Numbered from the stretch's first letter, positions 1 to 41,962 are shown. The stretch is DNA of 41,962 nt from Psammoneis japonica (GCA_008632985.1 QPGO01000070.1:372001-413962), one strand, 5' to 3'. Notes: generated by a model not told the origin, from the letters alone. Program-made: numbers and translations.

Positions 1-2
1 TG

Positions 3-1468: not shown

Positions 1469-2615
<1,147 letters not shown>

Positions 2616-3681: not shown

Positions 3682-5669
3682 GGTTTGCCTAATATAAAAG
3701 TCCTTCTCTGTCGCTGTACTGTAACCTGGTCGAATGCGGCGAATGGCCTTCCGCCAGAAAAATCTGAAAACACCGCGGACCGCGGGCGTGCAGTTGCGCG
3801 CAGCAATTACTTCCTGTGGATTTTAGGCGGGCGTGTTGCGAGCGAGGCAGGCAGGCAAGCGCAAGCGCAAGCAAGCAAGCGCAAGCCAAGGGGAGGCGAG
3901 GAGCGAGCGAAATGCAGCAAAAGCAAATTTCGCAAGCAGGCGCATTGCACCTGCCTGAAGACGACACAAAGAATTGGACGCTTCACTGGACGGCTGTGTC
4001 TCAATGTCTTCACAACCACACTCACAGAGAGTGAGGACAAAAGAATGTTTGAAGAAGAAGCTTCAATGATGGGCACCATCACACCCGTCACAATCTCTTG
4101 GGAGAGAGAAAAGTGTCTGCAGCACTCTTCTTCCCCTTGGGCTTCATTTGTGGATGTTCATCACTGGCAAACCAGGGCTCAGTGACACCCATGTGAGTGT
4201 CACAAAATGTCTCATCGGCATCATCTTCATCGTGTGCCTCTCTCCAACCAAATTGACGGCGGCGCTTGCAGCCCACAAATGGTCTGGTGTGTGCAACAGA
4301 CTGAGAGAGTGTGCCAGCACAGCGCAGCTCATTGTCATCAACAACACACTCTGCTGTCTCTTGCACTTGGGTGTTGTCTTTAGGAGGCTTTGTTGCCTGG
4401 TTTTTGACAAACTGACAAAGTCAAAGACATGGTTTGTGACGCAGTGTTTTCATCCATCATGATCCTCAAACAAGAAGTCCTGTGACAGGCCAGCCACCCT
4501 GCTTTGGATCTTCGTCATTGTTGAAACTGGCTCTCATGGCAACATCTGAAAGTCAAAAATCTTGATCTGCTGGCAATCCATTCCTCACATCCTTGTTCAG
4601 GTGCCAGGAGAATTTTGGACCTTGTTTTCCTCCTTGCGACCCACAACCATGCAAGCTGAGTCATGTCAGCTGCTGAAGTGCAGGTCATTTGAAGACAAGA
4701 GAGGGCTTCTTTTTGTCTGACATGGAGGCCACTTTTTTCCTCTTTTTGCCTTCTTGGGACTTGGTTTCCTTCTGAGAGTCTTTGTCAACAGCAACAGTGC
4801 TGGCAAAGAGAACAAGAGCAAGTGCCCAGCTTTGTGCAATGGCACAACAGCTGTTCTCTCACCACAAGCTCAAGAGGGGAGGACAACCAAGAACCTGGTT
4901 GTCAGCAACTTTGACCACAGAGACAGCTGGGTTTGTGCAGTTCTGTCTAGAGACACAACAAGAAAGGGACTTTGTCTTGGGAAGAAGCTTGGTGGCAGAA
5001 AAATGAAGAATGGCATGTCGCTGGCATTGAGAGCAAGCCACTTGGCAGCTCTCCAAGCACCACCACACAAGAGGGCTCTGAGAAGGTTCTCAGGCAATGA
5101 CTGTGCAAGACATTGCAGTTGAAGAGGATTGTCATCATTGGACAATGACTTTTGACAACATGGCAACAATCTGGGATTGCGCCATGTGATTGTCCTTGTC
5201 AGGTGGTGTGGAAACATGGTGGGTTGAGTTGCACATGCATCATGGCCCCTGCTTTCTTGAAAGTGAGCATGTGTCCAAAAGCACAAAAAGTTCAAACAAA
5301 ACCCATCATCTTGACAGAAAAGAAGTGTTGTGTCACATCCACAGATGGGCAAACAACAGAAAGACAAACAAAAGCAACAGGTGCTCAAATGTTCAAAGTG
5401 GTGGATGACCTCAAAACAGAAAAACAGCCAACTGACTGGCCAGGAGCCAATCATTTTTCAACCCAAAAATTGCCGGGGAAACTCACAATTTGGAGTTGTT
5501 GCAGAAAGCAATTTGTGCTTGGCCCCACAGCCTTTGAAAGCCATTGGGTGCCATTTTGCACAAAGACCACTTGCGAATTTGTTCATTTAAAAAGTGGTCA
5601 GCCCCAAACCCAGACTTCCTCCCTTCTTGTGTCACCAATCTGTCTCCAGTCTGGGCAAGGGCAGGTGCA

Positions 5670-5689
5670 GGGGGGGGGGGGGGGGGGGG
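5670..5689 (+). repeat. Poly-G tract (G20); a second G14 tract at 9175-9188
   Basis: Direct observation. Confidence 0.9.
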
Positions 5690-7357
5690 TGACACAGATG
5701 GGCAACAATTTCTTGTTTTGCTGCCATCAGCCAAAATGTCATGACAACCAAAGAGCGTGAGAAAGCTGCTCGTTTGTTGTGGTGAAGAGAAACCAGGGTG
5801 ATGACATTGTGCCAGATCTTTGCTGACCACTTTTTTAAATTTGGGGTGGGGAAGAAGAGGTGGCAGTGGCAGCATGCAAGTGCTGTTGCTGTGCATGTGT
5901 GTCAAGAAAGAAGGGGCCCCAAGCATTGTGGCACTCTTGTTTGCTGACTCTGTGCAATCTCCAGCATCTGCTGCACCAAGCTGTTGCCCCCCCAGCACAT
6001 GTGCTCTTGCAGCTTCTCCTCCTCCTGTGTTTTCAGCTGTGGCTGCTTGGGGCACTCTTTAAGAAATTGCCCAGCTGCTGGCAGTGGCAAGCTTCTGCTT
6101 GCAGTTGTTGTGCATCTTGCATGGAGCAGTCACTGCAAGGCACAAACTGTGCAAAAATTGATGCCACACGAGCAGGTCTCTGGCAAAAAAGCAGTGACAC
6201 ACAGATGTGCTCCAGCCCCAGGTGGGACTCTGCATGATGTTGGCCAATGGAATTCTGTGTGTGAGCTCTGCAGCTCATGCTCTGGCCAGCAGGTGTGCTC
6301 ATCTTTGATGCTCAAATGAGTGGCCAAGTTTGTAGAACATTTGCACCTCTTTGCTGTTGGAGTTCTTGAAAATCCACCTTCCCTGCACTGTTTTTTTCTG
6401 AGGACATTCAAGAGTGGCTTTGTGTGAAAAAATGTCAAAAGTTGTTGACAATTGGATCACCCAAAAATTGTGCACCACAAAATGACACAAAATTTTGCCA
6501 AAATGTCACAAAAAGGAGCACGCACAATGTGCGGTGCTCAACCAAAAAGCATCAATGTCACTGTTCAGCACTGTGCAAGGTCTGACCTGGAGTTGGAGTG
6601 TGTGCACAGGCCAGGTGGAAAAAAGGCATGTTGGCTGTTTGAAAGAGCAGCAGCCAACTCTGCACAGCCTTGAAAGACAGCATCTCATCCCACCATGTGA
6701 GATGTTGAGGGGGGCAACCTGCAAAACAGCTGGTGTGGGGTTGGCTGCAAAACAAGTGCAAAACATGCCAACAGGATGACTTGTGCAGTGGCAGGGTCAA
6801 CAGCAATGCCGCCAGTGTGGTGGGACCTGTCACAGCAGATGTGGCAGCTGGGAGCTCCACCACAAGCAGTGCTGCAACCACTGCCTCATCCATGACTGAC
6901 ACATTGACCATGGTCACCATGACAGCTGCCAGCACAGCCATGACAAAATGAGAAAGCTGTTGCCCCCTCTGTTGTTTTTGTTGTGGTCTCTAAACAGGCT
7001 GTGCCACACACTGTTGACAACAAGAATCATGCTTTCAAAACAGCCTGTGTGCTTGGGTTGCTGAAGCACAGAACTCAGCATGATCAAGAACATTGCAAAG
7101 CACCCACTTGCCTGTCCCCTGCTCCTCAGATTGTTTTGACACAATGGCTCACCACACACAACAACAACAGCTGGCTGCTGATGAAGCCACCATGAAAGTC
7201 TTGCAAAAGCCTTGCTCCTGACTTCAGCCTGTGCTGTTGTGCCTGCCATTCACTCCGCAGCTTGGATGACTGTCCAACTGGCAGCTCCTGCCTCAGCTTC
7301 TCATTCTTTGTTGGTCATGTTTGATGGAAAATTGGCTGCTCCAATTTTTCATTTGTT

Positions 7358-7360
<3 letters not shown>

Positions 7361-7390
<30 letters not shown>
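7361..7390 (+). repeat. (GA)15 microsatellite
   Basis: Direct observation. Confidence 0.95.
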
Positions 7391-7394
<4 letters not shown>

Positions 7395-9699
7395 GCACAC
7401 AGTGGAGTGAAGAAATTCAAGAGAGACTGGATGACCACAACATTGCCCAAAGAGAAGAGCACAGCAACTCTGCAACAGTGGGCATTGAGCCAATGCTGTG
7501 CTGCAAAAAGCTGACTTTTGTCCCTCAGTTTGTGGCTGGTGCAAAACCAAACCAAAAAACAAACAAGAGGAACAGCAGAAATGTGCCACACTGGCAGAAA
7601 CACAATGGCACAGGGGGCAAGTCATGAAAGCACTGGGTGAGTGTTTGGATGAATTGAAGTGCAGCAAAAACCTGGCACTCATGACAATGCTGTCTCTTGC
7701 TTGGAAGGAAATTGCAAAGAGCAGACTGACCAAGAATGGCAAAAGCACAATGCAGGGTGTGGGAGGGGAGACAATGGCTGAAAAAGCATGAAGAGAAACA
7801 GAGATGGTGGAGAAAAAAGCATCTGCAAAACAAGCAAAGCCAACAGGAGGACAGAAAAACAAGGAAGGCTGCAGCTGCTGCACTCAACAGAAGCAAGGGG
7901 CAAGAACAAACAAAATCAAGAAAACACAGCAATCTGGTGTGTGAAATGTGAACAAGTGGTGCATGTGGAGCCAAAATTTACAAACTCAGAACAATCTGTT
8001 TGTGAACAAGTTGTTGCTTGGTGCAGGTAGCCAGCGCCAATGAGGATGAGTTTGCAATTGTCCAGTGGCAAATGACAATGAAAAAGGCTCTGAACAAGCC
8101 CCATTTTGTGGAGCACACTGCCAGAGCATTGACTGGGAATTGTTGGCTGATGTTGTTCTGGTGCAACCAGGCTCAAATGAGAGCAAAATTTGTTGGCTGT
8201 GTTTTGTCTGCTTTGACCAGCATCAAACATTGGCATTGGCAAGAATTGGCCCATTGTTGTGGCTGGGCATTTGGGCAAGAAAAATTAGAGCAAGTTCATC
8301 AACAGCATGTTTTCCCACCAATTTGACTGGCAACTCACTTGAGACTTGTGAAAAGTTCTTTTGTTCCATCACACCAAGCAATTTTAAACTGACAGTGTCC
8401 AGCACAAAAGCACTGTCACCAAGCAAGCCCAGAACCTGAGCAAGTGCAGAAACATCTTCCAGATTGTGGGCAGGGAGCAAATGTTGCTGTTGCAAGTTGT
8501 TGGTCAGCTTTGCTGGAAAAAATGAACATTTTGGGCATTCTCCACTGGCGTTGTTGTTTTGATCATGCTCAAAGATTAAAACCACATCCCACATGCAGCG
8601 TTCAAGGAAGCCAGTGTTCTGTCACCTCATGCAGATTTGGATGTTGTGCAAATTGCCCAGGGAGAGCTCAATGTTTGGCAAGACTTTGAAAGCAAAAATC
8701 TTGGCAACCATTTGTGCAGTGTCGGCATGGATTTTTCAAAGCTGTTGGTGTGCCACATCTGTGCATTGTGCACTGTGCACTCACACAGAAAATTGGCACT
8801 TGTGGGTCCCAGTGGGGGTGCTGCAGCCCAAAGCAAGCAGATGTGACATGTGCTGGTTGTTGCTCGCCACTCCATGAAATGTGATTGAGCGCATTGCCAG
8901 CAGCAGCTCAGACCATGATCAGTGCCACACATTTCTCACTTTGGCACACCCACTCCTCTTCTTGCAGTTTTTGCAACAACCAATCTTGCTGTGCTCATTT
9001 TGAAATCATTTTCTGCAACACAGCCAACTGCCCATGCTGCTGTGGCATTTTTCAAGGCACTGGAAGACAACCCTGACATCTTTCACATGTTTGTGTGGGG
9101 GTGTGCTGGCAAACACCTGGACCTCCTTGACAGCAGCACCCTTGGTGGGTCCAGACAAACAATGGCAACCATCAGGGGGGGGGGGGGGTGCTGGGGAGGG
9201 GGGTTGGCATGTTCTTTTCATCTTGAGCTGGGTCAGCAGCAGCTCACTTTTCCTTGCACTGCTGGCATTGGCAAGTGCTTCAGCAGCTGCAAGCAAGCTG
9301 TGCAGCACATGCTTTTTCTGCACAATCTAAGAACCTGTCACACACTCACCTTTTCATCTCCACTTTGATGGGTGGGAGCTTGCAAGCCATGCATTGCTTT
9401 GTCTCTCTTCTTCATCAGACAAGTCCAGCAATGAGTGCAATGTGGCTTTCATGAAGAGCACAGCTGCTTGGTGGCCAACAAGTGGCTCTGCTGCACACAC
9501 TGAGCAATTTCCAGACACACCAGACACCTTGCTGGCAGAGAAAATCTTTTCACCCTTCTTCCAGCACCAAGCTGTGCACTGCACGTGGTGCCATCAGCTG
9601 CGACACACAGCTCTCAACACATGTGCAACCTTGAGCAAGGAAATGGGTCAGAGTGATCAGTCTGCTGCTGACACAGCTGCAACACCTGTGCACAGAAAA

Positions 9700-10280
9700 T
9701 CTCATTGCAGAAACAATGGAGACCCCAGCAGCCCAGCTGGGATTGATGACTGCACAACTTGGCAATGTGACAATCATGGTCATCAGTGTGGGTTGCCACA
9801 AAAGGCAAAGATTGGTTGCTGAAATTGACAAAAATGGCAGCCACCTCAGACTCCTTTGTGGAGCCAGCTCAAGGTGCAGCATGCTTCAGAAGAAGTGGGA
9901 ACCCCAAAACAAGCATGCCAGTCATTGCTGCTCATGGTTTGTCTCTTTCAAGTTTCAAGAGGTGCACATGAACTGCCATCGAGACCAAATGTCCTTTGCA
10001 ATGGCTGCTCCAACACTTGCAGCAAACAGCAAAGTCAGAGCACAGTGTTGGATGCTCACAAAGTGCTCCCAGCAAGCCCAAGAGTTGAGTTGGCCTGATG
10101 TTGACTTAACCCAATGCTTCAATTGTGCATTGCAAGCATGGGTGTGGAGTGGAGCTGCGGATGCCAGTGATCAAGCAGAGGAACTTGTTCTTCAGCCTCA
10201 TGAACACATTTGCCTCAATGTCATTTCATGCACAGCTTGCTTGGAAGCCCATGCCAACAGTCACGGGCTGGAGAGAAGAC
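9700..10280 (+). pseudogene. Decayed pentatricopeptide-repeat (PPR) gene fragment
   Basis: PDVDLTQCFNCALQAWVWSGAADASDQAEELV and LNVISCTACLEAHANS resemble stramenopile PPR repeats (PDxxxYNxxIxAWxxSG...AxxAExLL; PNVISYTxxxxAYA), with Y>C and Y>H changes. The 5' boundary is approximate. Confidence 0.55.
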
Positions 10281-10617
10281 AAGGATTTTGAACCCCCCCC
10301 CTCAATTGCTGCAGCGCTTCAACCTCAGCGCGCAAACTGCCCTGTCACACATGCAGCACCCAGTGTTTTCTCGTGGATGCCTCGCCTTCTTAAGCAGTTT
10401 TCTTTTAGTGCTCGAAAACACTTTTTTTGACATGGTCGTTGCCATCCTCAAAAATGTTGAGTGAGATACCATACAGAACAAAGGACAACCCAACCGCGAA
10501 CGAGATCAATGAAAGTTATATTTATTATGAGCTTTGTTATCAAATTTCTTGTGCACACTTGTTGTTTTCCACTTTGTCACAGAGCAGTTGAAACCACACC
10601 ATTGTGACGTACTTGAG

Positions 10618-11805
10618 CTAGAACAGTCCCGGCCAGTTGTCCCAGATCTCCTGAGTCCAACATAGTTCTTCTAGTGCCTCTTGCTGTTCAACAGTGAGTT
10701 CAGCCCACGCCGCGTCGTCGGACGCTGGTGGACAATTTATCCCTATTCCTTCGTCCCAGCACTCCCGCGTGTAGCCAAGAGTCTCAAACGCCGGCGTCAA
10801 TCCTTCTGCTTCTAGCTCGTCCCAAGTATAATCAAGGTAGTGATTGGCATAGCAGTCCCAGGTGCCTTCAAAATAACCAACAATAGACAAATCATCTCTC
10901 TGATCATCAGACAGACTCTCCCAAGCCAAGCCCTCCACATCAGCATTTAAACCGCGGATTGGCCATAAGACATTGTTGTAACCAACTCGCTCAAGTGCTT
11001 CTCGAACATCCGTTGGTAGATCTTCCCAAGCAACACCGTCAAACGGCTTATCAGGGAAGGCTGTCGGGCTTGAAGTAGGTGCATCGGTTGCGATAGTGGG
11101 CATTGGAGTCGGCGGCTCCGTTTCATCAGGCGTCGGGGGTGCCGTAGGTGACGGAGTCGGCGGCTCCGTTTCATCAGGCGTTGGGGGTGCCGTAGGTGAC
11201 GGAGTCGGTGGCTCCGTCTCATCAGGCGTCGGGGGTGCCGTAGGTGACGGAGTCGGCGGCTCCGTTTCATCAGGCGTCGGGGATGGCGTAGGTGACGGAG
11301 TCGGCGGTTCCGTTCCAATCGGCGTCGGGGGTGCCGTAGGTGACGGAGTCTGCGGCTCCGGTGCATCAGGCGTCGGGGAAGGCGTAGGTGACGGAGTCTG
11401 CGGCTCCGGTGCATCAGGCGTCGGGGATGGCGTAGGTGACGGAGTCTGCGGCTCCGGTGCATCAGGCGTCGGGGATGGCGTAGGTGACGGAGTCTGCGGC
11501 TCCGGTGCATCAGGCGTCGGGGATGGCGTAGGTGACGGAGTCTGCGGCTCCGGTGCATCAGGCGTCGGGGATGGCGTAGGTGACGGAGTTGGTGGTGGTG
11601 CTATTGCCACAGTAGGGGTTGGAGTCGGCGGTGATAGACTTTCTTGAAGGGCGCGCATCCAAAAGGCCTCTACTTCATCAGCAGTTAGCGTATCATCGAT
11701 CCCTAAACTCGCTCGAAGACTGCCTTTCTCATTCGTAAAGGCGCCATTCACTGGGAAATGAGAAGTGAGCAGGAAGGCTAGACGTAGAATAGCAATCAAC
11801 CTCAT
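10618..11805 (-). CDS. Secreted Pro/Thr-rich mucin-like protein with an RXL motif and C-terminal Trp-rich repeats
   Basis: ATG at 11805 gives a signal-peptide-like [21 protein letters not shown]. This is followed by [11 protein letters not shown] (RXL), about ten 16-aa PT repeats, and four WxxL...(G)Y/W...W(D) repeats. Intact ORF, TAG at 10620-10618. Confidence 0.85.
11105..11590 (-). repeat. Coding tandem repeat, 48-bp unit, about 10 copies of two subtypes ([16 protein letters not shown] and [16 protein letters not shown])
   Basis: Unit ggcgtaggtgacggagtctgcggctccggtgcatcaggcgtcggggat is repeated almost perfectly. Confidence 0.95.
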
Positions 11806-12210
11806 AGTTTCTTCGTCTTGTGAATGCGGATGTAGAATGAAGAAAGACTTCAATTCTCACGATGTGTGGTGATGTTGTGAGAAGGACCTATTTCCGCCAA
11901 ATTGACATGCGACATTATGCGGTACAACATTCAACATACATATTATGCATACATAATACTTTATTGATACGAAACCCTGATCAAACAATTCGGTTCGGAA
12001 GAAAAATATATAAATAATACAACGGTCATCGGCGATCCATACACATATGAGGATATTTCCTGGAGGCAATAGTACTAAAATAATCGATTTATTACATTTA
12101 AGTAAGTAAAGAAATGCACATGAAGATCGTTAATCGCCAGAAACCGTTTTGAGTCGTTGGCGTGCTGTACATACTGTACACAACATCATACTGTGTGTAA
12201 CGGTTGGGCC

Positions 12211-14065: not shown

Positions 14066-15791
14066 CACATCAGGTGATGGTGCTGCACACCCAAGAGGAT
14101 TTCACAGACCACTCACACCAAAGAACAATGCATCACAAGGGGATGCTGTGCTGGCTGGCTTGCACTCAGAAAGAGTGGCTCAACAAGGCATCACAAGATG
14201 ACGAAGCAGACCATGTCCCCAGTGCCAAGGAGGAGGCTGAGCCACCAAAGCAGGCCAGCCCTTGTTGGCTCCATCTGTTGTGCACCACTCACTCACACAA
14301 CAAATCCATGGCAACAAAGCAAAAGGGAGATGACTGAGCAAATTTCATGGTGGTGCTGGACAGAGCAAGCATGGAAGCCAAGGCAACGTCAGCTTCTTTG
14401 AGCACAGCAGAGTGTGAAAAGCTGTGAACTGGGGTTGATGAGGGCCGCTTCTTTCAAACACTCTGCTGGCTCAAGCAAGAAAGCATTTCACAAAGCCTGT
14501 TGATGCACTTGTGTGGCAAGACAGAAATGGGGCACAAGAGCTTTGGAAGTTGTGGCATTGAGCCTCCTTTTGTGGCAGACACAAGTGTGCAAGTTCTTGA
14601 AAGCAGATGTGGAGAAGGCAGGAACTTGGCACTCTCAAGGCAAAGAGTCCACAGGTCAGAGCAGCTGCTGTTGGGAAGCTGCAGAGGCTGCTCGCTTCAT
14701 GCACTGCCAGGCTCTGTTTGTCTGTGCAGCTCAAAGAATGGTTGTTGTGCACATCAAAAGTTGCAGAAACATGCTGTGAGATGGGACAGTTTGGAGGTGG
14801 TGGCAGCCAGAGTGGGAAAACAGAAAAAGGGTCATCAGCAATGGAGAACAATCAACAAATGACAACACCACAGCTGACTCTTGCCTTTTTTAGAGGACTT
14901 TGCTGTCACTGGAGCTGTTGGGCCACTGCTCAACAGCTGATGTGGTGTGCTGTGGGGGGGATTGTGTTGACCCTCCATCAAATCTGAGTGCAATGCACAA
15001 TGGAGGCACTGCACAGAGTCTGCTTCTCTTGACAGTCCAAAAATCACATGCTGGCTGCACACCAAGGAGAGCTCTGCTGGCGGTGCACTCAAAGATGAGA
15101 ACACAAGCAGGCACATGTCAAAAGTGGCAAAAGCTGCATTGCAGGAGAGTTTGTTGAAGGTGGTGGCCAAGCAAGAAAGCAAGAAGAGTGCCAAAGCCAG
15201 TGGCAGTTGAAGTGGTGCATGACATGCTGCATCTGAGTCTTGCTGTTTTCAAAAAATAAACTGTGCTCTCCATGGAGCACCAGCTGCTCTGCACCAGTTG
15301 AGATGAGGAGGCTGTGAGATTGTGCTGATGCTGCACTCTGCAAAAGTGGCAGAAAAAAGCAGAGGCAGACAGGCAACGCAGCTCACAAGCAATGTTTGCC
15401 TGGTGCTGACTTTGCCAAAGCAGACTCAAGTTGACTCCTGCTTCTCATTCCATTCACTCTGTGCACAAGTGTTGTGTGGGAAAAATGTGAAAGCAGCAGA
15501 GCACAAAGGACTCATTGATGTGTGGAGCTTGTGATGACCAGTGCTTGCAGGGGGCACAAAGCACACACCATGAACTGTGCAACTCTTTGCCAACTCTCAA
15601 GAGGTGTGACTCAACCTCTTCAGATTCCACTGAATCTGCTCTCATCTGTTGCAGAAGAAATGACATGAGCAACAGAAAACAAAGGCTGTGAGAGCAACCC
15701 TGCTCATGTCAAGTCAGCCAGCAGCAAAAGAAAGAGGAGACATTCAAGGTGACAGGCAGCACATGCCACCTCATGACTTGACCCAGGCCCA

Positions 15792-30702: not shown

Positions 30703-33700
30703 TGCCACCAATGTGGCTGCTGTGGGGCTGTGTGTGGACACTCCAAGATGTTTGCGATTGGCCCAACTGAGCTGTTTTTCAAGCAGCATTTTGCAAGAGC
30801 CCAAGAGCCCATTTGCTGGAGACTGTTCACCTCAAAATGACATTAGAAACATCGCGTGAGTGGCCCATGGTCATGCACAGTGGCCCTTTTTGGCTGCAGC
30901 AAAAGAGGGCAACAATGCTTGGGAAACAAGAAATTTGCTGTGTTGATTTTGTGCACCATGCTTCTGCTGGTGTCTGACTGTGTGGCACTGTGAAAAATGC
31001 AAGAGCTTGGATTTGTTCAAACAGCTTTGATGTGGACACTGCATTGTTGAAGCACTGCCACAACTCTTTCTTTCATTTTTGCCAGCAAGGCACTGCCAAG
31101 CTTCTTGTTGCTGCTCTCCCTCTTTGCACAGAAGCACATGCTTACACTCACACTGCCAAGGACCCTGACATCTCCAGAGGACTCTTGAAGAAAGTCCTTG
31201 CAAATCTCAAGATCATCTGCCAGGGAAGGGGAGTGATGATGATGTTGCTTGTGAGCACATCCATTTGATCCATGACAAAAGATCGATGTGATTTGGCATG
31301 AACTGCAAACCTGCTGGACAGTGCGGCAGGCTCAACTTGAAAATGACCCAGAAAACAAAGAAACAAGAGACAAGTTGCTCGACAAGGTGAAGAAGCTTGG
31401 ACAACCTGTCTCATGTCCAAAAAAGTGTTTTTGACTGCTGCTCTTTCAAATTGTGAGCTGGGAGGAGTTGTCAACTTCACAAACTCAAATGATTTCCTTC
31501 TCTGCGCAGATCCATGCAATGCCTTTGATGACACCATGATGCATGTTTTGTGTTGCTTTTGGAAGCAAGGTGAGGTGTCCTTGCTCACACCCAGAGCAAC
31601 CTGGCAGTGACATGCACCTGGCACTGGCATTGTGCCATCACAAAAAGTGGGGCCACCTTCTCATGTGTGTTTGTGTTTTGTTTGCCATGATGGTGGAACA
31701 CAACCCAACAGGAGCACAGGATGGATGGCACTGAACTTGACACATTGACACCATTCTCCCCCACAGCAACAACAGCAGTGGATCACATTTGCATCTGACA
31801 AATTGCAACAACCAGCTTCATGGGCCAATCATCAGAAACTTTTTTTTTGTTTGGGTCTCATTTTTTGTCATTTCAAAAAGTTTTGATGCTTGAAAAAGGC
31901 TTGCTGCTGCTGCTGCTGCTGACTGCTCATTCTCTGCCTGTGCTGGTTGAACTCTGGAATGATTGTGGTGCACAGAAAACATTGCACATCTGTCTGATGC
32001 CTGGCATCACATCCTGATGGCAAGCACCTTGGTGCATCCACCTGCTGTCACCAAAGCACCAGTCCTTCTGGTGCCAAAAAATCTTGATGAATTGCATGAC
32101 ATTGGTTTTCATTGCAACCACAAGAACTCCAAGGAACCTCACTGTGTGGAAAAGTCTTGAGGCAATTCGTCTGGGCAGATTGCAAGCCATTGGTGAAAAA
32201 CTTGGAGGAGGCCATGCTCAATGCCAGCAATGTTGATGTGTGTGCTGACTGCATCATCTGCTGCCCTGAGGCAACGGAGCAGTTTCCAGGATTGTGTGCT
32301 CTTTTTGCTCCAAGAAGTGCCCACTTGAGAACAAAAATTGTGCCAAATGCCAAAAAGTTGGGGTTGCAGGCTGTTTTGCATGAAAAACAAAATGGCACAG
32401 CAGGCAGCAGAGGACCATGCAGGGTGCCAGACCCCATGAAGAAATGAAGTTGGGCTGCCATGGAAAACACACAGTTCCCTGTGTGATGGTTGGGTCTTTT
32501 TCAACAGATTTCAACATTCTCAGCAGCCACTCCCTGTCCATTGATGCTCCCAGAGGCAAAATGGGGCAAGAAGAAGGCCGCCAGTGGCCAGGCCAGGAGC
32601 TGGGTCCTAGATTGCCTTTTCTCCTGACAACATGAGTCAGTCAACATCCACAACACCTGCTCCCATGACTGTGCAGTGTCTCTGCTGCAGGCTGCTAAGG
32701 AGTGATGGCTCTGGCTGTGTTCCACATGGGCACATGCAACCAAAATGCAACCAGCAGCAACCAGTTGCACACAGAACATGAGAACCAGAGCACCCGCATG
32801 TGAACAGAGCATCAGACTTTTTTGCACACCCTCCTGTTTGAAATTCACACACAACGGTGCTTCCTCCGGCAAGCAACAATTGTGCAGGACAAATTGCCGT
32901 GTCATTTTTTGCAGCATTGATCTGCACAAAATCGCACAGTCACACACCACACAAGACAAATTCTGCCTTGCATCAACCTCCAAAATGATGCAAACAATGG
33001 CAGCCCTGGCCCCAAACGTTGGCATGGAGCAAGCCAACCATTCATGTGTGACAATCGTTGGTTGCTGAGACCAAGAAAACCAGGGGACAGATTTTGCAAT
33101 GCTGTTTTTGGCGGATTGTGGCATGGTTTTGCAGGAGGTTGTTTTGGCTGTCATTTGTTGAGTGTCAGACTTGCACAGGTTTCTGTGTGATGGCTTCTGA
33201 TGAGTGATTTTGGATGATGCAATTTGAATGGATTTTCAACAACACACAACAACAGGGGGATGTTGGGGCTGTCAGAAGGTTGTGAGGCGATGTTTCAAGG
33301 GTGTTGGAGCCAAGAAATGGGCAATTTTGGAAGTGCCTGTCTCATTTGTGCCATTTTATTCAAGCACAATGATCAACAGGGCTTTTTTCATGTCTTGTTG
33401 GGTTGTGAGCTCATAGATTTGAATGTTTGCCATCACAAATTAGCGCCAAAAAAATGACGCCGTAATTCATCATGTGCAATTGTTGCTCACAGGAGGAAGA
33501 GTGATGCACAGGCCATTGTCCAAGTGATTTTGCAGCATCACATTTGTGTTCTCAAGCAAAATTTGTGCAAACTGTGTGAATTTTAACATGACATGTTCCA
33601 TCGTGGGAAAACAGAGTTTGATGCCACATCACCCATCATGATGGGTCTGTGGCTTTGGCGGCACCAATGCCAGCACTTTCCACCGTGTCAAGTGGCATCT

Positions 33701-34259
33701 TGCTGTTGCCTTTGTAATTGTCCATGATGCACAAAGCAGAATTGAGTGATGCACCTGTTTTTCATGTTGAAAATGATGGATGCATCTCCTTTGTTGGTGT
33801 GATGTGACATGTCAACTTAGTGCTTTTTATCAAGATGGTAAAAGTTGTGCTGTTCTCAAAACAGGTTGCCTGTTCAGAACAACGTGTTGCACTGTTCGGA
33901 TGTGGAGTTGCCTGCTCTCAGCCAAGAGTTTGCTCAAATGGGGTTAGAACAGGTGTGACATTTGACCAAAAATGTCAAAAACAAAGGAACACATGAAATG
34001 TCATTGGAGTCACTCAGTGCACAAATGTGACACTAAAAATTGCTTGGCCACATCCCCTGTGTTGCCAAACAATGATCGGAGGGACAATGGCCGGGAAGTC
34101 CTCTCGTCAGGTGGGGCCCTCCTTGTCAAAATCCCTCCTCATTGGGGGCCATCTTCTTGTTGAAACACCTCCTCATTGGGGGTCTTTTTGTTGAGCTGTT
34201 GCCCCTCTGATCACACTTTTAGCAGGAACCTCAGCATGCAGTTGCTGTTGCAAGCGTTG

Positions 34260-35464
34260 TTCTCCATGCCGCTCTGGCTTGTCTCAGGTTTTTGGAGTTT
34301 CATGTTGCAACAGTGCTGCCAAACAGTCTCAAGTGTCGCGACCTCTCAGAACCAGCTGCCAATTTGTGTGACACGGACATCATTCTCACAACAGCTGCAT
34401 TTTGTGGAGGATGGCTGTGCAGCATGCTGGAACTTCATCGTGCTGTGGTTGACGAGTCTCACCTCCTTGACACTGGCAATTCCATGGACTGCAATCATTC
34501 CTGCAATGTGCTTGCCAACATTTGCTGGCGTGTTGCCACTGCTCCTTTTGCATCCACTCATTCACTTTGGAAACAGATGAGCTTTATCAAGATCCAAGAA
34601 GACTTCCTCATGGTGGCGGAAAGGGCGTCTCCCAAGGAGCGCTTCTGTCATTTGGCCGCCAGGCCGAAGCCCTTGATGATTCGATGCACAAAAAACCAGC
34701 GCATCCAAGGCAAAGCCGCCCTGGCCCTTCCTGCCTCGACTGCTCAATCTGCAATGGTTGAAATGACGGAGAAGGAGAAGCGTAATTTCAAGATCTCATG
34801 GTCCCAGGGATGGAGGCGCTTGCAATCTTTCGTTGCGGGAGCAAAGTTGTTTGCCATTGAGACGTCAGGGGTGTCTTGCGCCAGTCCAGCCATTTTTTTC
34901 CAGAGGAAGCCGATTTGCGGCACTGTTCCAAGATTCAACGTCTTGTCGCCGATGTTCAAAACTTGACAGTTCGCGAAGAAAAAGAGTCCAGGATTCTCCT
35001 GCGAGTCGCAGTTTTTACCCACTGCAAGGGCATGTTAAAGGCTGACGCACACTTCTTGAAGCCATTCATGAATGTTTACACCTTGACGGATCCACCACTT
35101 CTCCCAAGCGAGACAAAGCTGTTCGGGCATTTCAGGATGTTTCTCACACCGAATGTGTGAGCCTTCGTCCTGCTGCCTTTGTGATTACCCTTCGTACCGG
35201 CTCAGTCGGCATCACGCTGACGGCTGCATCACACGTTTATACTGTATGATGGAACCATGCGTCGATGTCAATATGGAGACGCAAGCTGCTTGGCGGATCC
35301 ATCGACTTGGCTAAACCAAGCGCGTGGGGGTGACGAGATATGTTCACAAGGAGTCGGTGGAGGAGCGATTGGTAGAACTGCAGTCAGAAATGGTGGCTGG
35401 CCGCATCCGGTTGGGTCAAGATGGAAAGCTTCCTGTTGAAGGAATCCGTATTTTGACTAGCTAG
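34260..35464 (+). pseudogene. 5'-truncated SNF2-family (RAD5/16-like) helicase pseudogene
   Basis: DIILTT, HRAVVDESH (motif II), WRVATAPF (motif III-like), LMIRCTKNQ, VAVFTH, VITLRTGSVGITLTAASHVY (motif V), and MEP...ETQAAWRIHRLG*TKRV (motif VI) with a premature TAA at 35312, then SVEERL. Frameshifts are present; the final TAG is at 35462-35464. Confidence 0.85.
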
Positions 35465-35719
35465 AGGATATCAGGAGACGCATCAATGGTATTTTTGTCA
35501 TAAATAGATATGTATGCATAGTTGTATTCATGGTGATGTACGCGCAGTGCTGTTTCAATGAAGAAACAGCTCTATCGTCTGCGTGAAAGTGCCGTATTGT
35601 CGTGGAATCAATTCAGGACGTGGCCAAATGATAATTTTTCTATGCTCGGCGTTTAGTATTTCTCGTGGTTGACATCTATGAAATTCAAACGTTGTTGTAA
35701 GATGGACGTCCTGGAACGT

Positions 35720-36617
35720 CTATTCCAAATAGGATCGCCGAGATGCCGGCATCAAGAAATCGTCCGTGCATTTCTCCATCTCAATCTCAATCTTGTTGTT
35801 ATAATTCATTTCAATGAGCAAAACACTCGTCTCGGCCGTTCCACACATATGCTCCGTTTTCCAGCTTGACTGTACAGTTCGATTCCATAGAATCACGCGA
35901 GCATTGACCAATAGGCCAAAGAGGATGGGAGCGAAGGCATGTACGGCTGGGAAAACTTCCAGATGCATGTTGAAATGGAATTTCTTGAATAATTTCCAAG
36001 CTGATTTCCCCTTGACCCGTTTGTTGAATTTTGGAGCATTCACCCGCCAAGTCTCATAATCTTCAACCTCTTCTCCATCTGGGGCTTCCTGTTCTCCAGA
36101 TGGATGGAAATCGTACATTGTCACTGCCTCGCCAGCACTTAGTTTTTTCATGGCGGTTCCCTCCTTGTACTCAATTCGGCGAGTCTCCCGACCGAGTTGG
36201 TTAGCCATATCTAGGGAGGCTTGGACGACGGCGGCCTTGGTGTTGTGCTTGTTAGACCATCCCTTGCGAACTTGCATAGAAATCTCGAACGATGGGTTGC
36301 AAAGTCGCAGACGACAAATTACTACCGGTAGTAGACCGAGAGAAGAGTTCTTTCTCGGTTGCGATCTTGTGGAGGAAGCGGTTCATCAGGCGGATCGAGA
36401 GGAGTTCGTCAAAGTCCAAGAAAGGGAGGATATTAGCGACGAGCAACGACGTGAGGATGTCTCCCAATCCACGGAGGCCCGTCTCGTTTTCCTTGTCGGC
36501 GCCTTCGCCACGGTTCATTTCGGAAGTACTACGCATGGTTGCTTCAGCATACGTAGGCTCGTCGGCCGTTGCTTCTTCTGTCTTTGCTTTCTTCGGAGCT
36601 GGTTCCTGCATTGACAT
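35720..36617 (-). CDS. Putative F-box-containing protein (one apparent frameshift near 36280-36330)
   Basis: LTSLLVANILPFLDFDELLSIRLMNRFLHKIAT is F-box-like. The ORF 36617-36252 overlaps the ORF 36277-35720 in another frame. Normal CpG/TpA content. Confidence 0.55.
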
Positions 36618-36739
36618 GATGGCTTGTGTATTAGAGAAGCAACAACGTGATTTGCCTTGCAGTTCAGAATCGCGCGGCAGGAGAAAAACTTGATGCCGAC
36701 AAGGGGGCGACGTACGGACCGATAGCAGACAGACTGACC

Positions 36740-39700
36740 ACCGACAGACCTGCGGATCGTCTGGCCGACGCTACGCGACCATGCGTCACGTGACTCATCA
36801 GGAGCGTGCACCACACAGGGCATCAACGAGAGCACAAATTCAAAATTGTTCCGTCCATCAGTCCATCCTCTGTCAGGGGGAGAACTTCTTTTTGTCTTTC
36901 CCCTGAGTTGTGTGTGTGCACCCAATGGGCAACCAGCATTGCAGCGGCGGGGGAGTTGTCATGAACTCGTCATCACAGCAAGTTGTGGCGGGCAGCTGAT
37001 GCTTCGGCAGGAGGAGAGCTGCTGTTTTGTGGAGTGCGCAACTTGAAAAGGAAGTGCGTGCAGCACAGACATTTTTTGCCTGCCTCATCTTGGGCCAAAG
37101 AAACAGAATTTGACGTGTTCCAGAGCTCCAGGTGGGGCCTCGCACTGCTGAGCTGTGACACAATTGTTTTTCATCATCCGTCCCATGTTTTGCATGCACA
37201 TTTCTGTGTGTTCTGTTGCAAAAAATTGTTCCACACTGCCTGTTTTGTGAAGCCAAAGGCTTTCTGTTGTCTGCATTTGTGACAATGAAAATGCGCTGGG
37301 CATGTTCTTCAATGACTGAAGAGTGCACCTGGGCACACTGCAAAGAATGCACTTCAAGTGTGGAGGAGGAGATGCATTTGCCAAATTGCCTCTTTTTCTG
37401 TTGGTGATCATTGACATGTTCATTGCTTGACAATTTTGCTGCAGAGCTCGCACGTGGAATTCTGCGGGCCCAATGTCACAAAAAGTCCCGCCTGGGGCTG
37501 GATCCCGTCATTTGAAGCTCACTTGATGACGGTCTCCTGCACGCTGTTCCGCGTCACTGGCTGTCCTTGAGAACCTCTGATGCGCCACTGTTTTCCCTTC
37601 ACTCTGTGCACACACTTGAACATGTGATCTCTGCAGCAAGGAGAGCCAACCAGCACTCAATTGGCTGTTGCCCAGTGCAACACACAATGCAGACAGTCAT
37701 TGGCACACCAGTCTGTTTTGTGCACACTTGTTGCCTCAACTTAGATCCCACACAATCTGGCCACAATTGAATCAGGATGTTGAGAAACACTGATTCTGAA
37801 GCTCAAGGAGTTCAACCAGCTCAAGGCAGGTGAGATGCCAGTGCACCTGGTGCCATGAAACAGCCCCAGGTGTGGATGCTGTTGGCTTCACTGCCCCAAT
37901 GGCAGCAGCCAGGTCCAGAGAGCCACCCTTTTGCCAACCTTTGCATCATCAAGCAGCCTCATCAAGGGGGAAGAGCAAGACCAGTGGTGTCAACCACACC
38001 AGCCCAGCTGGCCATCATGCTGCAAGTCTCGTCTTTTCCACTGTGCTGACTCGCTCATTGTGGAGGTGTCGGGCTCATGCTCACTTGTTCTGGCTCATTT
38101 TTGGTGGAGGTCATTGCTGAGCACAGCAGTGGACGACCAGTGGTTTGTGATTTGTTTTGCTCTCAGATCCTCTCACAATGTTGGGGAATCATCTGATGCC
38201 ACACACAGTCCCTCAAAAGACTTGCTGACCTTCAACTGTCCTTGCCCATGGGACACAGACCTGCAGACTTGCTGTCTGACCCTGGCATCAAGCACACACA
38301 GGCCAGTTGGTTGACCCTTTGGTCCCCCTGGTTCCCTTTTGGAGCCTCAGGTCAAGTGGCATTCATTTCTGCACCCCCCCCCNNNNNNNNNNNNCCCCAG
38401 AGCATCTGCATCTCCTTCCTGTGTGATGCCCAACTCTTGCAGGATTTCTGATGGAGGTCTTCCGCCCACCAACATCAACCACAAAAATGTCAACAAGCTC
38501 ATTTTGAACATCCCTTCAAACACTTCTAACCACACAACAAAATGAAAAAGTGCCCCATTTCAAGATCCTTTTTGAACATCCTTCATGACTTGAAGGAATC
38601 CACATTTTGACCACCAGCCAACAAGATCAGGAGACACGTCAGTGCACTCTTGATTTTGAAAGAATCACACCAATGTAGAATGCAGTGTGTCAACAAGCAC
38701 AATCAGGCTGGAAAGTGAAGGGAGATTTTGCTGCACCTTCTTTTGTTCTGTCACAGTCCTCTTGTCTTTGGATCATTCATCTCCAAATTTACAGCATCAA
38801 ACCAAAGAAGCAGTCATCAGGTTGGTGTCAGAAGTGCAGTCGCCTGCCCACCATTGTGGGCAAGCCATCAGTGTTTGAGCTCAATGCCTGGTCATTCTCA
38901 TGTTTTTGGTTGGCAAGAAATTGCACCAGATGCCAGTCGCAACAACACAACGGCCTCCAGCAAAGCATGCACATGGCAGGGACAGTTTCCATCACACCAT
39001 CAATTCTTGCTTCAACAGAGAGCTGCACCTTTTACAAGGACAAGGGAAGTGAGAATGAAATGAGTGGCAGGCTTCAGGACCAAGACACCCTCCTGCAGCA
39101 AACCGCAGCAGTTGTTCTGCCTTGTTTTCAAATCCCCGCATTTGTGTTGAGGGTGTCTTCCTGGCACACAGCTTTGGGAAGAAGCACTCCAGCATTTTCA
39201 ACTTGAAAAAGGAAAAGCACAGAGAGCCACAATCTTGCCCACCTTCAAAACCAAAAAGACATTGGCGGCTGAGAGTTCTTGGACAATGGAGCTTTCGAGA
39301 GAGCCCTTGTTGTGCATTTCCAACTCCAAGTGGAGATCATCGTGAAGTCCCTGCTTCTTGGCATCCATGAGAGGTTTGAGAGCCACGGCACAGTTCCTGC
39401 TGCACTTGACATTGCCCATCCCTCCTCTGGTGGCTCAAGACCTGATGGTTTTGAGGTGGAGATTTGGGCCGCTTGTTGCCGCAGAAAAGCAGTTTCCCGC
39501 GGGGCTCACACAAAGAAGAGCATCAAAAACTGAGGACTGGGGTGCAGCCCAAGCTGTTGTCCACTTCCCAAGAGCACGGGTCAAATGCAAAGTTTCATGC
39601 CTTTGCCAAATAGAGAGATCAGGTCAGAGTTGGCTTGCACCATGGTTTGAATGCCCTTCACAAAGAGCTCAAACGAGGGTGCTGGCAAACACAGTGCTTC
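36740..39700. other. CpG- and TpA-depleted decayed domain C
   Basis: Same composition as domains A and B; CpG is partly retained at the edges. Confidence 0.8.
38383..38394. other. Assembly gap (12 N) inside a poly-C run
   Basis: Direct observation. Confidence 0.99.
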
Positions 39701-39717
39701 TGCTCCACGGACGAAGC

Positions 39718-39993
39718 TGACAGAAAATGAAGGCAAATGGCAAGAATTCAAACAACAACTCCTTGCTGCTGTCTAAATGGCAGATGAGTCTCCGCTCAGA
39801 GACCGTCACAGGAGCCGAAAGACGTGCAAGTCGGTGTGATCGGGCCACTGTCATTATTCTTGTGAGCCTTGTGGCTCGAAAGCAAACTACATCGCGCGTG
39901 AATGCACGGAACTAAAGCACACAAAACTGTGCACGGCAAACTAAACAGCGCGCGATGCTTCGCGCGCACCTGAATCCTGTTCAAATCCTGTCA
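39718..39993 (-). repeat. Probable 3' LTR of the copia element
   Basis: On the minus strand the purine tract AACTGGGGAG is followed by TGACAGG at 39993. A matching inverted end ...CTGTCA lies at 39718. The 5' LTR is outside the window, so the end is unconfirmed. Confidence 0.55.
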
Positions 39994-41962
39994 CTCCCCA
40001 GTTTGCTTGAGGAGCCACAGAAACAGATTTGACTTCGGATGGAATGAAGTTCCAGAACATGAGGGGGCGGAGAAGGTCCCAGATTTGGGAGTAACCCCAA
40101 TGCTTGCTGAGAATGTCAGCAGGGTTGCGGGAACCTTCGATGAAGTGGAACTCAAGGCAACCAGAGGCAATTGCCTCACGCACACGGTGGAACGACAGTG
40201 CGGTGTGTCGCTTGTGTAACTTGGAGTGCGGGATGGTGGCACTGTCTACAACCGACTTGTTGTCACCGAACATGTAACTAACGTTACGGATCGGGACGCC
40301 AAGGCAGCGCAGGGTGATGCGCAGGTCGATAATCTGCTCAACACAAGTCCTTGCGGCAACAAATTCAGACCCGCAGGTTGCAGTCTCCACGGTGGCTTGT
40401 TTCTTAGAGAACCAATCAGCCGGGAATTTGTTGAGGAAGTGGAGCATTCCCATGACAGAGCGTCCGGTGAGCATGCAATGGTGCAAGTTTGCATCGACGT
40501 AGTGGGTGGTAGTGACGAACTTTCCAAGGGGCGGTGGAGCGTCCTTCGGGATCATCTCTTCTGCTCCACCATGCACGGAATGCATCCATTCACAGGCCGG
40601 AGCAGGGAGATCCGAACAGTCGGGCTCTTCCGTGCAAACGCGGAGAGCACCGTGTCGCATCTTGGAGAGGTGCCCACAGACGCGTTTGGCACGATCCAAG
40701 TGGCCTTGACGGGGTGCAGCTCGGAAGCTAGAGAGTGACATGACGGCCGTGGTGATGTCAATTCGACCAAGGGACACTGCCCATTGGAGTGAACCAACAA
40801 GAGACTGGAACTTGTGAATGCCATCGGGTCCCAGCAGTTCGGAAGTGTCCAGTTCGGGGTGGTCACCCTTCTCTAGAGGTGACAGGGCGTTGGTGGCAGG
40901 TTTCTCCCCAAACAGTCGGGCATGGCTGTCGACCATGCGCTTGATGTACTTGCGCGGAGACAGGCACAAGGTTCCGTCGGGTTCCCGGGAAAAGTCGCAA
41001 CCCAGATGGAACTCAATGGGTCCCGCACCCTTGAGCTTGAACTTGTGCTTTTCCGTGAGAGTGTCGACGAAAGATTGAGGGTCCTTCATGGCAATGGCGA
41101 GGTCATCCACATAAACGGCAATGCATTCATGGTGGTCGCCGTTCCTGCGCATCCAAATGTCGGGTTCGGCGCGGCAGGGGAAGAAGCCTTCAGCTCGCAG
41201 GCAGTCGGCGAAGCGCTCGTGCCAGCGGAGACCGGAGCTGCGCAGTCCATGCAGTGCCTTGTGGATGACAAGGATGTGCCCTTCGAGTTTGCCGAACTCG
41301 GGTCCAGCTACAATGTAAAGCTTCTCCTTGGTGGTGGCTTCAAGGTGGGCATTGCCAATGTCGGTGGCCCATGTCTCCAACTCGTTGAGTTCGGCCAGGA
41401 AAATCATCAGCCGAAGGCCACAGAGGGAGACTGCTCCGGAGCAGACACTGTCGACAGGTACGTCCGTGAGGTGCCCGTCGGCTACGAGTCGTGCCTTGTG
41501 GCGACCGTCGTGTTTCACGTCGCACACTAGGTGCACTCGGATCTTCTTGTGTCCCGCAGGAGGAGTGGAAGATTTGAAGGGCCCGCAGTCATGGAAGACT
41601 TTGTATTCGTCGAGTTGGTCCATCTCGAGATTAGTTGCGTCTCCCCACTTGCGGTTGCCATTGCGTTCGTCCAGTGACATGGCGTGTTTGTAGTTCTGGG
41701 GAACTTCGCATCCATGCTTGTAGCGAGGTGCAGTGCGGAAGGAGCGAAGCTTGGCTTGGTTGGCCATGCGAAATGGCTTCTTTTGGCGCCTCGCGATGGT
41801 GCGGAACCGCTTCCAGCCATCCGTGTCGAGGAGTCCGTTCTCTCGTGCATAGATGGCACAGGTGACGGGGTCATCCTTGGCGATGATGGCAAGAGGCTCG
41901 GACGTGATCTCCCCACTTTCCCATTCAAGCATGATGTTGTAGCTGGAGCCTTTCCAGGTTGG
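39718..41962 (-). mobile_element. Ty1/copia LTR retrotransposon (diatom CoDi-like), 3' part of pol: RT and RNase H
   Basis: Uninterrupted 663-aa ORF with DVKHDGRHKARLVADG, DIGNA(H)LEA, KAL(H)GLRSSG, YVDDL, YVDAN, SKKQATVETAT(C)GSEF, GDNKSV, KLHKRH, NPADILSKHWG. It continues past the window end. Confidence 0.95.

Follow-up and report, generated by a model that had tools for sequence, protein, structure and literature searches.

Regional loss of TpA and CpG in the diatom Psammoneis japonica: probable hypermutation of silent domains

Layout and composition of the TpA-erased domains

The window analysed here, a stretch of 41,962 nucleotides from Psammoneis japonica (GCA_008632985.1 QPGO01000070.1:372001-413962), contains three long domains from which the dinucleotide TpA has been almost completely erased and in which CpG is scarce, set among islands that keep both. 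With limits drawn at the last and first TA, the domains span 3825-10390 (domain 1, CpG-poor only at ~3992-10263), 12281-35015 (domain 2, the largest) and 36773-39773 (domain 3, with a 12-N scaffold gap at 38383-38394 inside it). They were recognised from dinucleotide counts, have no strand, and together cover ~32.3 kb or 77% of the window. Island 1, at the window start, carries a gene for a DUF819 membrane protein and one for an adenosine kinase; island 2 (~10391-12280) and the unaffected island 3 (35016-36772) hold one open reading frame (ORF) each that is described below. Domain 2 harbours the relic of a protein gene, and the 3’ end of the window is occupied by a Copia-type retrotransposon.

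We pooled four stretches of the domains (4000-10250, 12500-21500, 24000-34250 and 37000-39700; 28,192 bases) into a depleted set and compared them with an island set (1-3750, 10300-12250 and 35000-36750; 7,452 bases). In the depleted set, TA was observed 80 times against 1860.5 expected (observed/expected, o/e, 0.043) and CG 231 times against 1658.2 (0.139), while TG (3131 against 1656.6; 1.89) and CA (3310 against 1867.8; 1.77) were in excess. The island set gave o/e values of 0.607 for TA and 0.966 for CG, so that TpA differs ~14-fold between islands and erased domains. A previous reading of this DNA made without any database search—hereafter the sequence-only reading—had put the portion lacking both CpG and TpA, with TG/CA in excess, at roughly 80% of the window, an estimate that these counts bear out. 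It had also proposed islands that retain both dinucleotides; this is true of the three islands above but not of its 3’ ‘island’ (39774-41962), which is the Copia copy, is partly TA-depleted and holds no host gene.

The loss is selective. G+C content shows no shift (0.486 in depleted DNA, 0.493 in islands) and the other A/T dinucleotides are spared (o/e 1.0-1.4 for AA/TT, 0.6-0.95 for AT), which speaks against a T>C change without TpA specificity. The total of pyrimidine-purine (YpR) steps is likewise constant (0.2395 in depleted DNA versus 0.2422 in islands); within it, CG+TA falls from 0.0976 in islands to 0.011 in depleted DNA and CA+TG rises from 0.1446 to 0.2285, as expected of transitions that take place inside YpR steps.

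Domain borders are sharp, within ~100 bp, and at five of the six the loss of TA extends 80-760 bp beyond that of CG. One part of domain 2, 21750-24000, has kept half of its CpG (CG o/e 0.488) at a TA o/e of 0.103. It includes a 186-bp tandem repeat (22920-23415; 2.7 copies, 84% matches) whose copies differ by 10 CA/TG doublets, with TpA gone and half of the CpG kept. By the thresholds for TpA-poor clusters given in the accessible text of a preprint on the alga Bigelowiella natans (bioRxiv 10.64898/2026.01.13.699255), 29 of the 41 one-kb windows would be classed as such.

At the left edge of domain 1, the segment 3825-3991 is G+C-rich and CpG-dense with short repeats of the GCAAGC type; all of its TA is lost and its CG is kept. 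The segment lies upstream of a minus-strand ORF (3235-3822) and, judging by its letters, may be an unmethylated promoter within range of the TpA-directed process.

An ORF scan against Pfam took in 226 ORFs of at least 80 aa, 214 of them wholly or partly in TA-erased domains and 12 in islands 1 and 2. Not one of the 214 yielded a credible Pfam domain; three of the 12 island ORFs matched PfkB. Weak Pfam rows—for instance NAD1 AID/APOBEC, E 0.013—were rejected as being at chance level for that many queries. A tblastn search of the window with 155 proteins revealed no further Copia or DUF819 remnants, and Rfam returned no match. Long ORFs persist in depleted DNA because TAA and TAG are erased: there are 35 of at least 150 aa (26.6 ± 5.1 by a second-order Markov model) and three of at least 290 aa (0.66 ± 0.84 by the same model), neither excess being significant, and the ten longest contain 0-1 Tyr each.

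Self-comparison of the window found just 13 repeat pairs. A contig comparison covering window positions 1-20000, to which 752 contigs aligned, marked repeated families by a summed contig depth of 280-1,200 at 4003-7337 (280-520), 12674-14007 (~1,200, an abundant repeat) and 15342-16675. Stretches at single-copy depth (7338-10005, 14008-15341 and 16676-20000) are depleted as much as the repeated ones; they may be old repeats that have diverged past 80% likeness. An (AG)16 microsatellite occupies 7360-7391, where aligned contigs appear cut.

The genes of island 1 place the window among diatoms. The DUF819 gene (3-1145, plus strand; Pfam DUF819 E 2.6e-16) is partial, running off the window start; the best relatives of its product are 58% identical, and the named ones are diatoms at 30-35%. 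The adenosine kinase (PfkB) gene (1658-2612, plus strand) is spread over three overlapping frames whose ORF pieces cover positions 32-141, 138-206 and 204-297 of the PfkB profile. All its named relatives are diatoms, with 70-79% identity (Attheya, Nitzschia, Cylindrotheca, Mayamaea and Ditylum), which identifies the window as diatom DNA and not Bigelowiella. The contiguous profile pieces imply two frameshifts, near 2065-2080 and 2277-2286. A contig of sequencing run X1 departs from the window at 2065, 2272, 2294 and 2297 and one of run X2 agrees with it; the frameshifts reflect either an allelic pseudogene or assembly indels.

In island 2, where TA and CG are normal, a 412-aa ORF (10621-11856, minus strand) has no Pfam match. 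Ten 48-bp (16-aa) tandem repeats occupy 11105-11589, CpG is very abundant at codon positions 2-3, and the ORF probably represents a host gene for a repetitive protein, lying in an island free of methylation. The 220-aa ORF of island 3 (35723-36382, minus strand) matched no family.

Tyrosine loss in a Copia element and a gene relic

The Copia-type reverse transcriptase (RT) ORF at 39944-41962 (minus strand; Pfam RVT_2 E 5.8e-26) is open for 673 aa and runs off the window end. With a TA o/e of 0.271 and a CG o/e of 0.861, this copy represents an early stage of TpA hypermutation, its CpG still intact. Conserved-Tyr columns were defined as those with Tyr in at least 70% of 60 Copia relatives. At the 24 such columns, the ORF reads His seven times, Cys four times, Phe twice and Trp once, whereas the 60 relatives, scored alike, have no His/Cys in 52 cases, one in seven and two in one. 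Its divergence at conserved columns is otherwise ordinary (51 of 443, versus a mean of 0.094). The changes TAY>CAY and TAY>TGY are precisely TpA>CpA and TpA>TpG; beyond Tyr, T-A codon junctions number 7 against 30 expected, and ATA codons are absent.

The same signature occurs in independent environmental contigs. We collected 63 loci of Copia relatives, of which 60 had at least five scorable conserved Tyr positions; L061-L063 had too few and were excluded. Median Rho TpA of the environmental loci is ~0.69, so the family is not TA-poor by nature. Three of the 60 are hypermutated, with His+Cys at 16 of 18 (L032), 14 of 17 (L035) and 11 of 21 (L014) conserved Tyr positions, Rho TpA of 0.13-0.31 and Rho CpG of 0.74-0.80; scored in this manner, the window copy has 11 of 23. 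The remaining 57 have 0-1 His+Cys, some of them combining a Rho CpG of 0.13-0.27 with normal TpA. Among the substitutions of the hypermutated copies, Tyr>His/Cys predominates. In all hypermutated copies the frames are open (0-1 stops in 496-695 aa) because TpA>CpA/TpG cannot convert a sense codon to a stop.

Eight environmental loci (L006, L025, L034, L044, L047, L056, L058 and L059) have a Rho CpG of 0.13-0.27, ordinary TpA and intact Tyr. From their composition, the hosts of these loci seem to have methylation of the element but not the TpA process.

If modified bases in heterochromatin—5-methylcytosine (5mC), say, or a modified T or A—were miscalled by a long-read base-caller, false TG/CA would result. 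A symmetric modification miscalled on both strands would likewise intersperse CA and TG, as is seen, and the assembly does have the 12-N gap and may carry indel errors in island 1. A second data set, run X1, nonetheless reads the same letters. It comprises 657,387 contigs (140.7 Mb in total), contains 0.86 of sampled words of positions 1-10000 and covers 30 of the 30 bins compared; its library type is not on record, but contig number, total size and word depths point to short reads. On depleted DNA (5670-6504, 7403-8953, 9178-11134, 13754-15819 and 16194-19212), X1 contigs of word depth 55-75 show 0-1 differences and 0-1 gaps over 0.8-3 kb, yet they are ~1% off in island 1 (825-4196; 18-19 substitutions plus 11-18 gaps per 1.2-1.8 kb). 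This contrast between island 1 and the depleted domains or island 2 suggests that heterozygosity is patchy or that the assembly switched haplotypes. Clean, full-depth contigs make a mix of strand-specific miscalls at modified bases unlikely, and the three hypermutated environmental contigs, which come from other assemblies, bear the same Tyr>His/Cys signature. A base-calling artefact is thus extremely unlikely. Run X2 gave depth in 12 of 30 bins, mainly islands, and X3 in none of the 30, and we draw no inference from uncovered parts.

Nor does the Copia protein sit well with a generic cause such as GC-biased gene conversion, relaxed selection or drift of old non-coding DNA. Old, decayed non-coding sequence is indeed free to drift, but Tyr>His/Cys in a transposon protein is not adaptive, the borders are sharp, G+C is constant, AA/TT is not depleted, and the change is confined to YpR steps whose total is kept. 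Causes of this generic kind have virtually no chance of accounting for the data.

A second protein-coding sequence, in domain 2, was affected as well. The relic gene of an unnamed family (26297-27747, plus strand) was detected by tblastn with residues 103-582 of its closest relative, P0276 (E 8e-117). It has one frameshift near 27197 and weak upstream pieces at 24654-25334 and 25896-26249, and its ORF at 26390-27286 has a best phmmer match of 50% identity (E 7e-81). None of the 14 Tyr of P0276 survives in the relic, which reads His at six, Cys at five, Phe at two and Gly at one; 13 more distant relatives keep 1-6 Tyr at these positions. Of the 17 Arg of P0276, five are retained, five read Gln, two His and one Trp, and these Arg>Gln/His/Trp changes (8 of 17) are CGN>CAN/TGN, the pattern of CpG decay.

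Four other members of the family (P0277, P0280, P0284 and P0287) read His or Cys at 4-5 of 8-13 P0276 Tyr positions. In P0284, Arg is found at 0 of 13 aligned Arg positions, eight of which read Gln, His, Trp or Cys. By their residues, these four proteins may have been predicted from hypermutated copies in other organisms.

The relic family is small, with 26 representatives (P0276-P0301) among 1.84 billion proteins. It had no match in Pfam (including Tet_JBP) or NCBIfam, no sequence or profile match in PDB, no Foldseek match in PDB and no relative on viral contigs. A link to CroV588, based on a single-sequence match (E 0.0012), was discarded since it was not reproduced by profile. The predicted model of P0283 resembles TET2-DNA (Z 8.4, 210 aligned, root-mean-square deviation 4.5) and NgTET1 (Z 8.2), followed by CcTet (Z 6.8) and CMD1 (Z 6.7), with generic 2-oxoglutarate oxygenases at 5.8 or less; the structure-comparison tool cautions that a Z near 8 may reflect a common arrangement. 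For the modelled C-terminal part, the matches are a phage 5-PmdU glycinyltransferase (Z 7.1) and helix-hairpin-helix (HhH) glycosylases. In the family alignment the HxD motif is conserved, with H313 present in at least 90% of rows and D315 in all; R351 is conserved too, and no conserved distal His appears. On the strength of the models, these proteins may form a divergent fusion family, TET/JBP-like, in diatom-like eukaryotes. TET/JBP genes are associated with transposons in fungi.

These resemblances bear on a route through modified thymine, in which a TET/JBP-type enzyme would oxidise T at TpA to 5-hydroxymethyluracil (5hmU) and on to 5-formyluracil (5fU), and T>C would arise via 5fU:G mispairing or via excision and faulty repair, with 5mC-type CpG decay running in parallel. 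As TpA is palindromic, T>C and A>G are indistinguishable by sequence, and the preferred context derived below can equally be written R-T-A. The nearest folds of the relic family, its conserved HxD and its glycinyltransferase/HhH-like C-terminal part raise the possibility that this lineage has enzymes that oxidise thymine or cytosine. The fold matches, however, are modest, lying at or near the caution line of Z 8; sequence comparison did not tie the family to TET/JBP, and its alignment lacks a conserved distal His. The copy in the window, itself a dead relic, is a likelier target than agent, and the literature searched held no 5hmU or 5fU data for diatoms. We regard this route as unlikely.

Direction, strands, context and order of events

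CA in one copy facing TG in the other is the mark of an ancestral TA or CG that was resolved independently. Six repeat pairs in affected DNA contain 26 such doublet sites, which make up 52 of their 153 mismatched bases, and a tandem repeat in an island, used as control, contains none among 20 mismatches. Differences among the 752 aligned contigs comprised 420 transitions versus 187 transversions. The environmental copies L032 and L035, from different assemblies, are 94.5% identical, and 86 of their 93 differences are transitions. By site, these are TA<->CA (14), TA<->TG (12), CA<->TG doublets (20) and CG<->TG/CA (8); 74 of the 93 mismatched bases exchange one YpR step for another, and 66 lie at TA-derived sites. 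With 106-111 CpG sites versus 13-26 surviving TpA sites in this pair, TpA events outnumber CpG events several-fold despite the far greater number of CpG sites. The direction is therefore TpA lost and CpA/TpG gained, contrary to fungal repeat-induced point mutation (RIP), just as the sequence-only reading had it. Its further claim, that a second and domain-restricted process converts T:A to C:G at TpA, is supported by the Tyr>His/Cys changes, the CA/TG doublets, the constant YpR total and the separability from CpG decay described below.

Both strands are hit. Over the four hypermutated Copia copies, His and Cys stand at 25:27, and strand patches of CA/TG were detected neither by runs (z -2.6 to +0.2, island-like) nor by block chi-square tests. 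This parity and the lack of patches point to many independent events at the DNA level, and argue against RNA editing of the sense strand followed by reverse transcription. According to the accessible part of the B. natans preprint, known A-to-I RNA editors act preferentially at UA (10.64898/2026.01.13.699255), and one clear target here is a Copia retrotransposon, so that A-to-I editing of retroelement transcripts by an ADAR/ADAT-like enzyme with a 5’-U preference, fixed by reverse transcription and reintegration, might be envisaged. Such editing predicts A>G on the sense strand only, hence Tyr>Cys, at odds with the ratio found. Single-copy DNA without a recognisable element is also depleted, the depletion crosses element borders to gene flanks, and the affected relic in domain 2 is not a retroelement gene. 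RNA editing as the source is highly improbable.

The context of TpA loss was assessed in the four hypermutated Copia copies against a baseline of 60 normal loci from the same family. Retention ranged from 0.06 in ATAT, 0.13 in ATAC, 0.18 in GTAC, 0.23 in ATAA, 0.26 in ATAG and 0.27 in CTAC to 0.45 in GTAA, 0.47 in CTAA, 0.57 in TTAA and 0.70 in CTAG. Per-strand survival, fitted according to the base that follows the A, was 0.29 for T, 0.45 for C, 0.75 for G and 0.78 for A, which makes T-A-Y, or equivalently R-T-A, the preferred site. The domains agree: 67 of the 80 TAs that survive in the window stand in TTA/TAA contexts, 22 of them in TTAA, and window gains favour RCA/TGY, in line with the Copia context. 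By hand count, Tyr codons after a purine became His in eight cases and Cys in two, with two kept, and those after a pyrimidine His in four and Cys in seven, with eight kept; the dependence of His versus Cys on the preceding base is suggestive only (Fisher p = 0.08).

TpA loss precedes CpG loss and is the faster of the two. Copia copy, half-decayed stretch (21750-24000) and full domains form a series with TA/CG o/e values of 0.27/0.86, 0.10/0.49 and 0.04/0.14. Since TpA loss is found without CpG loss and CpG loss without TpA loss, the two processes are separable.

Retention of CpG relative to islands, a confounded comparison since this baseline is coding, was 5.6% in TCGA, 6% in CCGA/TCGG, 9.5% in GCGA/TCGC and 36% in GCGC. 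A 5’-T bias of this kind differs from the context order of spontaneous 5mC deamination, and TCG hypermutation is known from some basidiomycetes. A single enzyme would suffice if a 5’-T-directed, TadA/ADAT2-like dual A/C deaminase erased both T-A and T-C-G, making CpG loss enzymatic. In keeping with this, CpG loss is strongest in TCG contexts, and amphioxus ADAT2 is described, in the accessible portion of the report, as acting on C at TCG and on A in DNA (PMC10354150). TpA is lost with CpG intact in four Copia copies, however, and CpG without TpA in several environmental loci; the two footprints differ at five of six borders; and, apart from the confounded context baseline, hits on TC outside CpG are not in evidence. 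We consider a one-enzyme origin very unlikely.

Explanation and comparison with known systems

Taken as a whole, two-process hypermutation of silent diatom domains is the probable explanation. Long, sharply bounded, repeat-rich nuclear domains, probably silent chromatin, have undergone two separable transition processes. The first is a TpA-specific A:T>G:C change, the faster one and slightly wider at the borders; it prefers T-A-Y, with TTAA and CTAG as the most refractory contexts, and is of one kind with the TpA hypermutation recorded in mutation-accumulation lines of B. natans. The second would be the CpG>TpG/CpA decay of methylated DNA. Between them they turn the two self-complementary YpR steps into CA/TG and leave total YpR and G+C unchanged. 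Tyr and the codons ATA/CTA/GTA/TTA are destroyed by the first process and no stop is made, so that inactivation would proceed by missense with long frames persisting. Signature, direction, symmetry between strands, separability from CpG decay and recurrence in independent environmental contigs are all observed here. That the mutational process is as described—TpA-specific, domain-restricted and active on both strands—we hold with high confidence. The sequence-only reading had named three candidate chemistries: deamination of A, a modified T and error-prone repair. As to its chemistry, we tentatively favour enzymatic adenine deamination in DNA by a TadA/ADAT2-type deaminase recruited to silent chromatin, a possibility rather than an expectation.

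Several points weigh against this explanation. A large part of the depleted DNA has single-copy depth and no recognisable transposable element (TE) or viral domain, and a targeting cue is not evident. The ‘silenced’ state of the domains is read solely from repeat content, decay and analogy. The TET/JBP-like fold predicted for the relic family keeps the thymine-oxidation route alive. Run X1 may be the very sample behind the window assembly, its library type being off record, and the sequencing platforms of the environmental contigs are not on record either. Lastly, the analogy with ADAT2 is loose: in the portion of the report that is accessible, the amphioxus enzyme BjADAT2, the only natural ADAT2 with demonstrated activity on adenine in DNA, prefers GAA for A in E. 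coli (and TCG for C), not TA (PMC10354150).

A bolder extension would have TpA in diatom silent chromatin bear a heritable T or A modification—a second palindromic, symmetrically maintained mark with a slightly wider footprint than methylated CpG—of which TpA erasure would be a mutational by-product. The relic TET/JBP-like/HhH-like family would be involved, and the mark would be shared across stramenopiles, alveolates and Rhizaria (SAR), including diatoms and chlorarachniophytes. We give this idea only a slight chance.

TpA-directed hypermutation, the process favoured here, would matter beyond one locus. With a diatom showing it as well, the evidence points to a genome-defence-like process that is widespread, and perhaps ancient, among SAR eukaryotes, not a one-species curiosity; its signature is traceable in environmental contigs. 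Erased DNA keeps long false ORFs and quickly loses protein similarity; as Tyr is lost and this similarity fades, TE and viral relics escape annotation. Affected elements in assemblies and metagenomes can be flagged by a simple statistic of TpA versus CpA+TpG, or by His or Cys in place of conserved Tyr. The T-A-Y preference and the refractoriness of TTAA/CTAG constrain any candidate enzyme, and since diatoms are transformable and have sexual cycles, the enzyme, its chromatin targeting, its timing and its link to methylation are open to experiment.

Among known systems, RIP converts CpA to TpA by C deamination in ascomycete fungi, creating TA and stop codons. Like the diatom process, it is heritable and regional, produces transitions only, ruins repeated or foreign DNA and leaves dinucleotide frequencies strongly skewed. 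The outcome is opposite: TpA stands at 0.043 and CpA/TpG at 1.8-1.9 here, with TA destroyed and no stops made, and where RIP deaminates C, the diatom process needs A>G or T>C. RIP also acts on duplicated DNA, whereas a dependence on duplication is not evident here, DNA at single-copy depth, which may be old diverged repeats, being equally depleted. Diatom DNMT4 is related to fungal RID, according to the accessible part of the source, which describes its function as not known (PMC9998398).

CpG decay of the 5mC type accounts for the CG>TG/CA half of the pattern, namely the Arg changes of the relic, part of the differences between copies and the low-CpG loci. Diatoms methylate CG in their TEs, with DNMT5 as methyltransferase. 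Decay of this type cannot remove TpA, however; here it lags behind TpA loss, and elsewhere it occurs without it.

The likeness to animal deaminases (APOBEC3, ADAR and ADAT2/3) lies in the use of a nucleic-acid deaminase against selfish elements, and ADAR and TadA/ADAT favour an A that follows U or T. The natural target of TadA is UACG. APOBEC enzymes produce C>T at TC/CC on one strand, and ADAR acts on RNA and is confined to animals; neither yields a symmetric, TpA-only loss over domains. Amphioxus ADAT2/3 is active on A as well as on C in DNA, both in vitro and when tested in E. coli (PMC10354150). The symmetric, saturating, TpA-only loss in chromosomal domains sets the present case apart from ADAT2/3 as known.

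A literature search, which left most subscription journals outside its range, found no report of TpA hypermutation in a diatom or another stramenopile. The sequence-only reading had known of no such pathway in any organism, a statement overtaken by the B. natans preprint of April 2026, whose accessible text reports the same regional TpA>TpG/CpA hypermutation (10.64898/2026.01.13.699255). In the mutation-accumulation lines described there, 231 of 302 nuclear mutations fell in two silent integrated viral regions, and 230 of these 231 were A>G or T>C, all at TpA. The rate in the inserts was ~6e-7, raised ~1000-fold, and the process was episodic, seen in only 11 of 15 lines. Across the B. natans genome, 124 clusters are poor in TpA and rich in CpA+TpG; RT and DDE domains are over-represented in them, as is unannotated sequence. 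As agent the authors suggest a DNA adenine deaminase of the ADAT2 type, as yet unproven (all 10.64898/2026.01.13.699255).

Measured against this account, the two systems agree in A:T>G:C transitions that turn TpA into TpG/CpA on both strands, and in a restriction to discrete regions in sharp contrast to untouched neighbouring genes. A long-term footprint poor in TpA and rich in CpA+TpG is common to both, as is adenine deamination as the proposed chemistry. They differ in host, a chlorarachniophyte (Rhizaria) there and a diatom (Stramenopila) here, and in extent: the diatom DNA is near saturation, with a Rho TpA of ~0.04 over tens of kb, compared with 0.45 in the B. natans insert of a nucleocytoplasmic large DNA virus (NCLDV) and a cluster threshold of 0.43. 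The targets reported for B. natans are silent NCLDV and virophage inserts; the recognisable ones here are a Copia RT, anonymous repeats and a non-viral gene relic. CpG decay is superimposed in the diatom, and the extended T-A-Y preference is seen here, although flanking-base data may exist in the preprint’s supplements. As far as the accessible record goes, a single report, on a rhizarian alga, has described TpA-directed hypermutation of foreign DNA, and the diatom case adds a second lineage. Noteworthy here are the saturation, the retrotransposon and repeat targets, the coupling with CpG decay, the T-A-Y motif and the diatom host.

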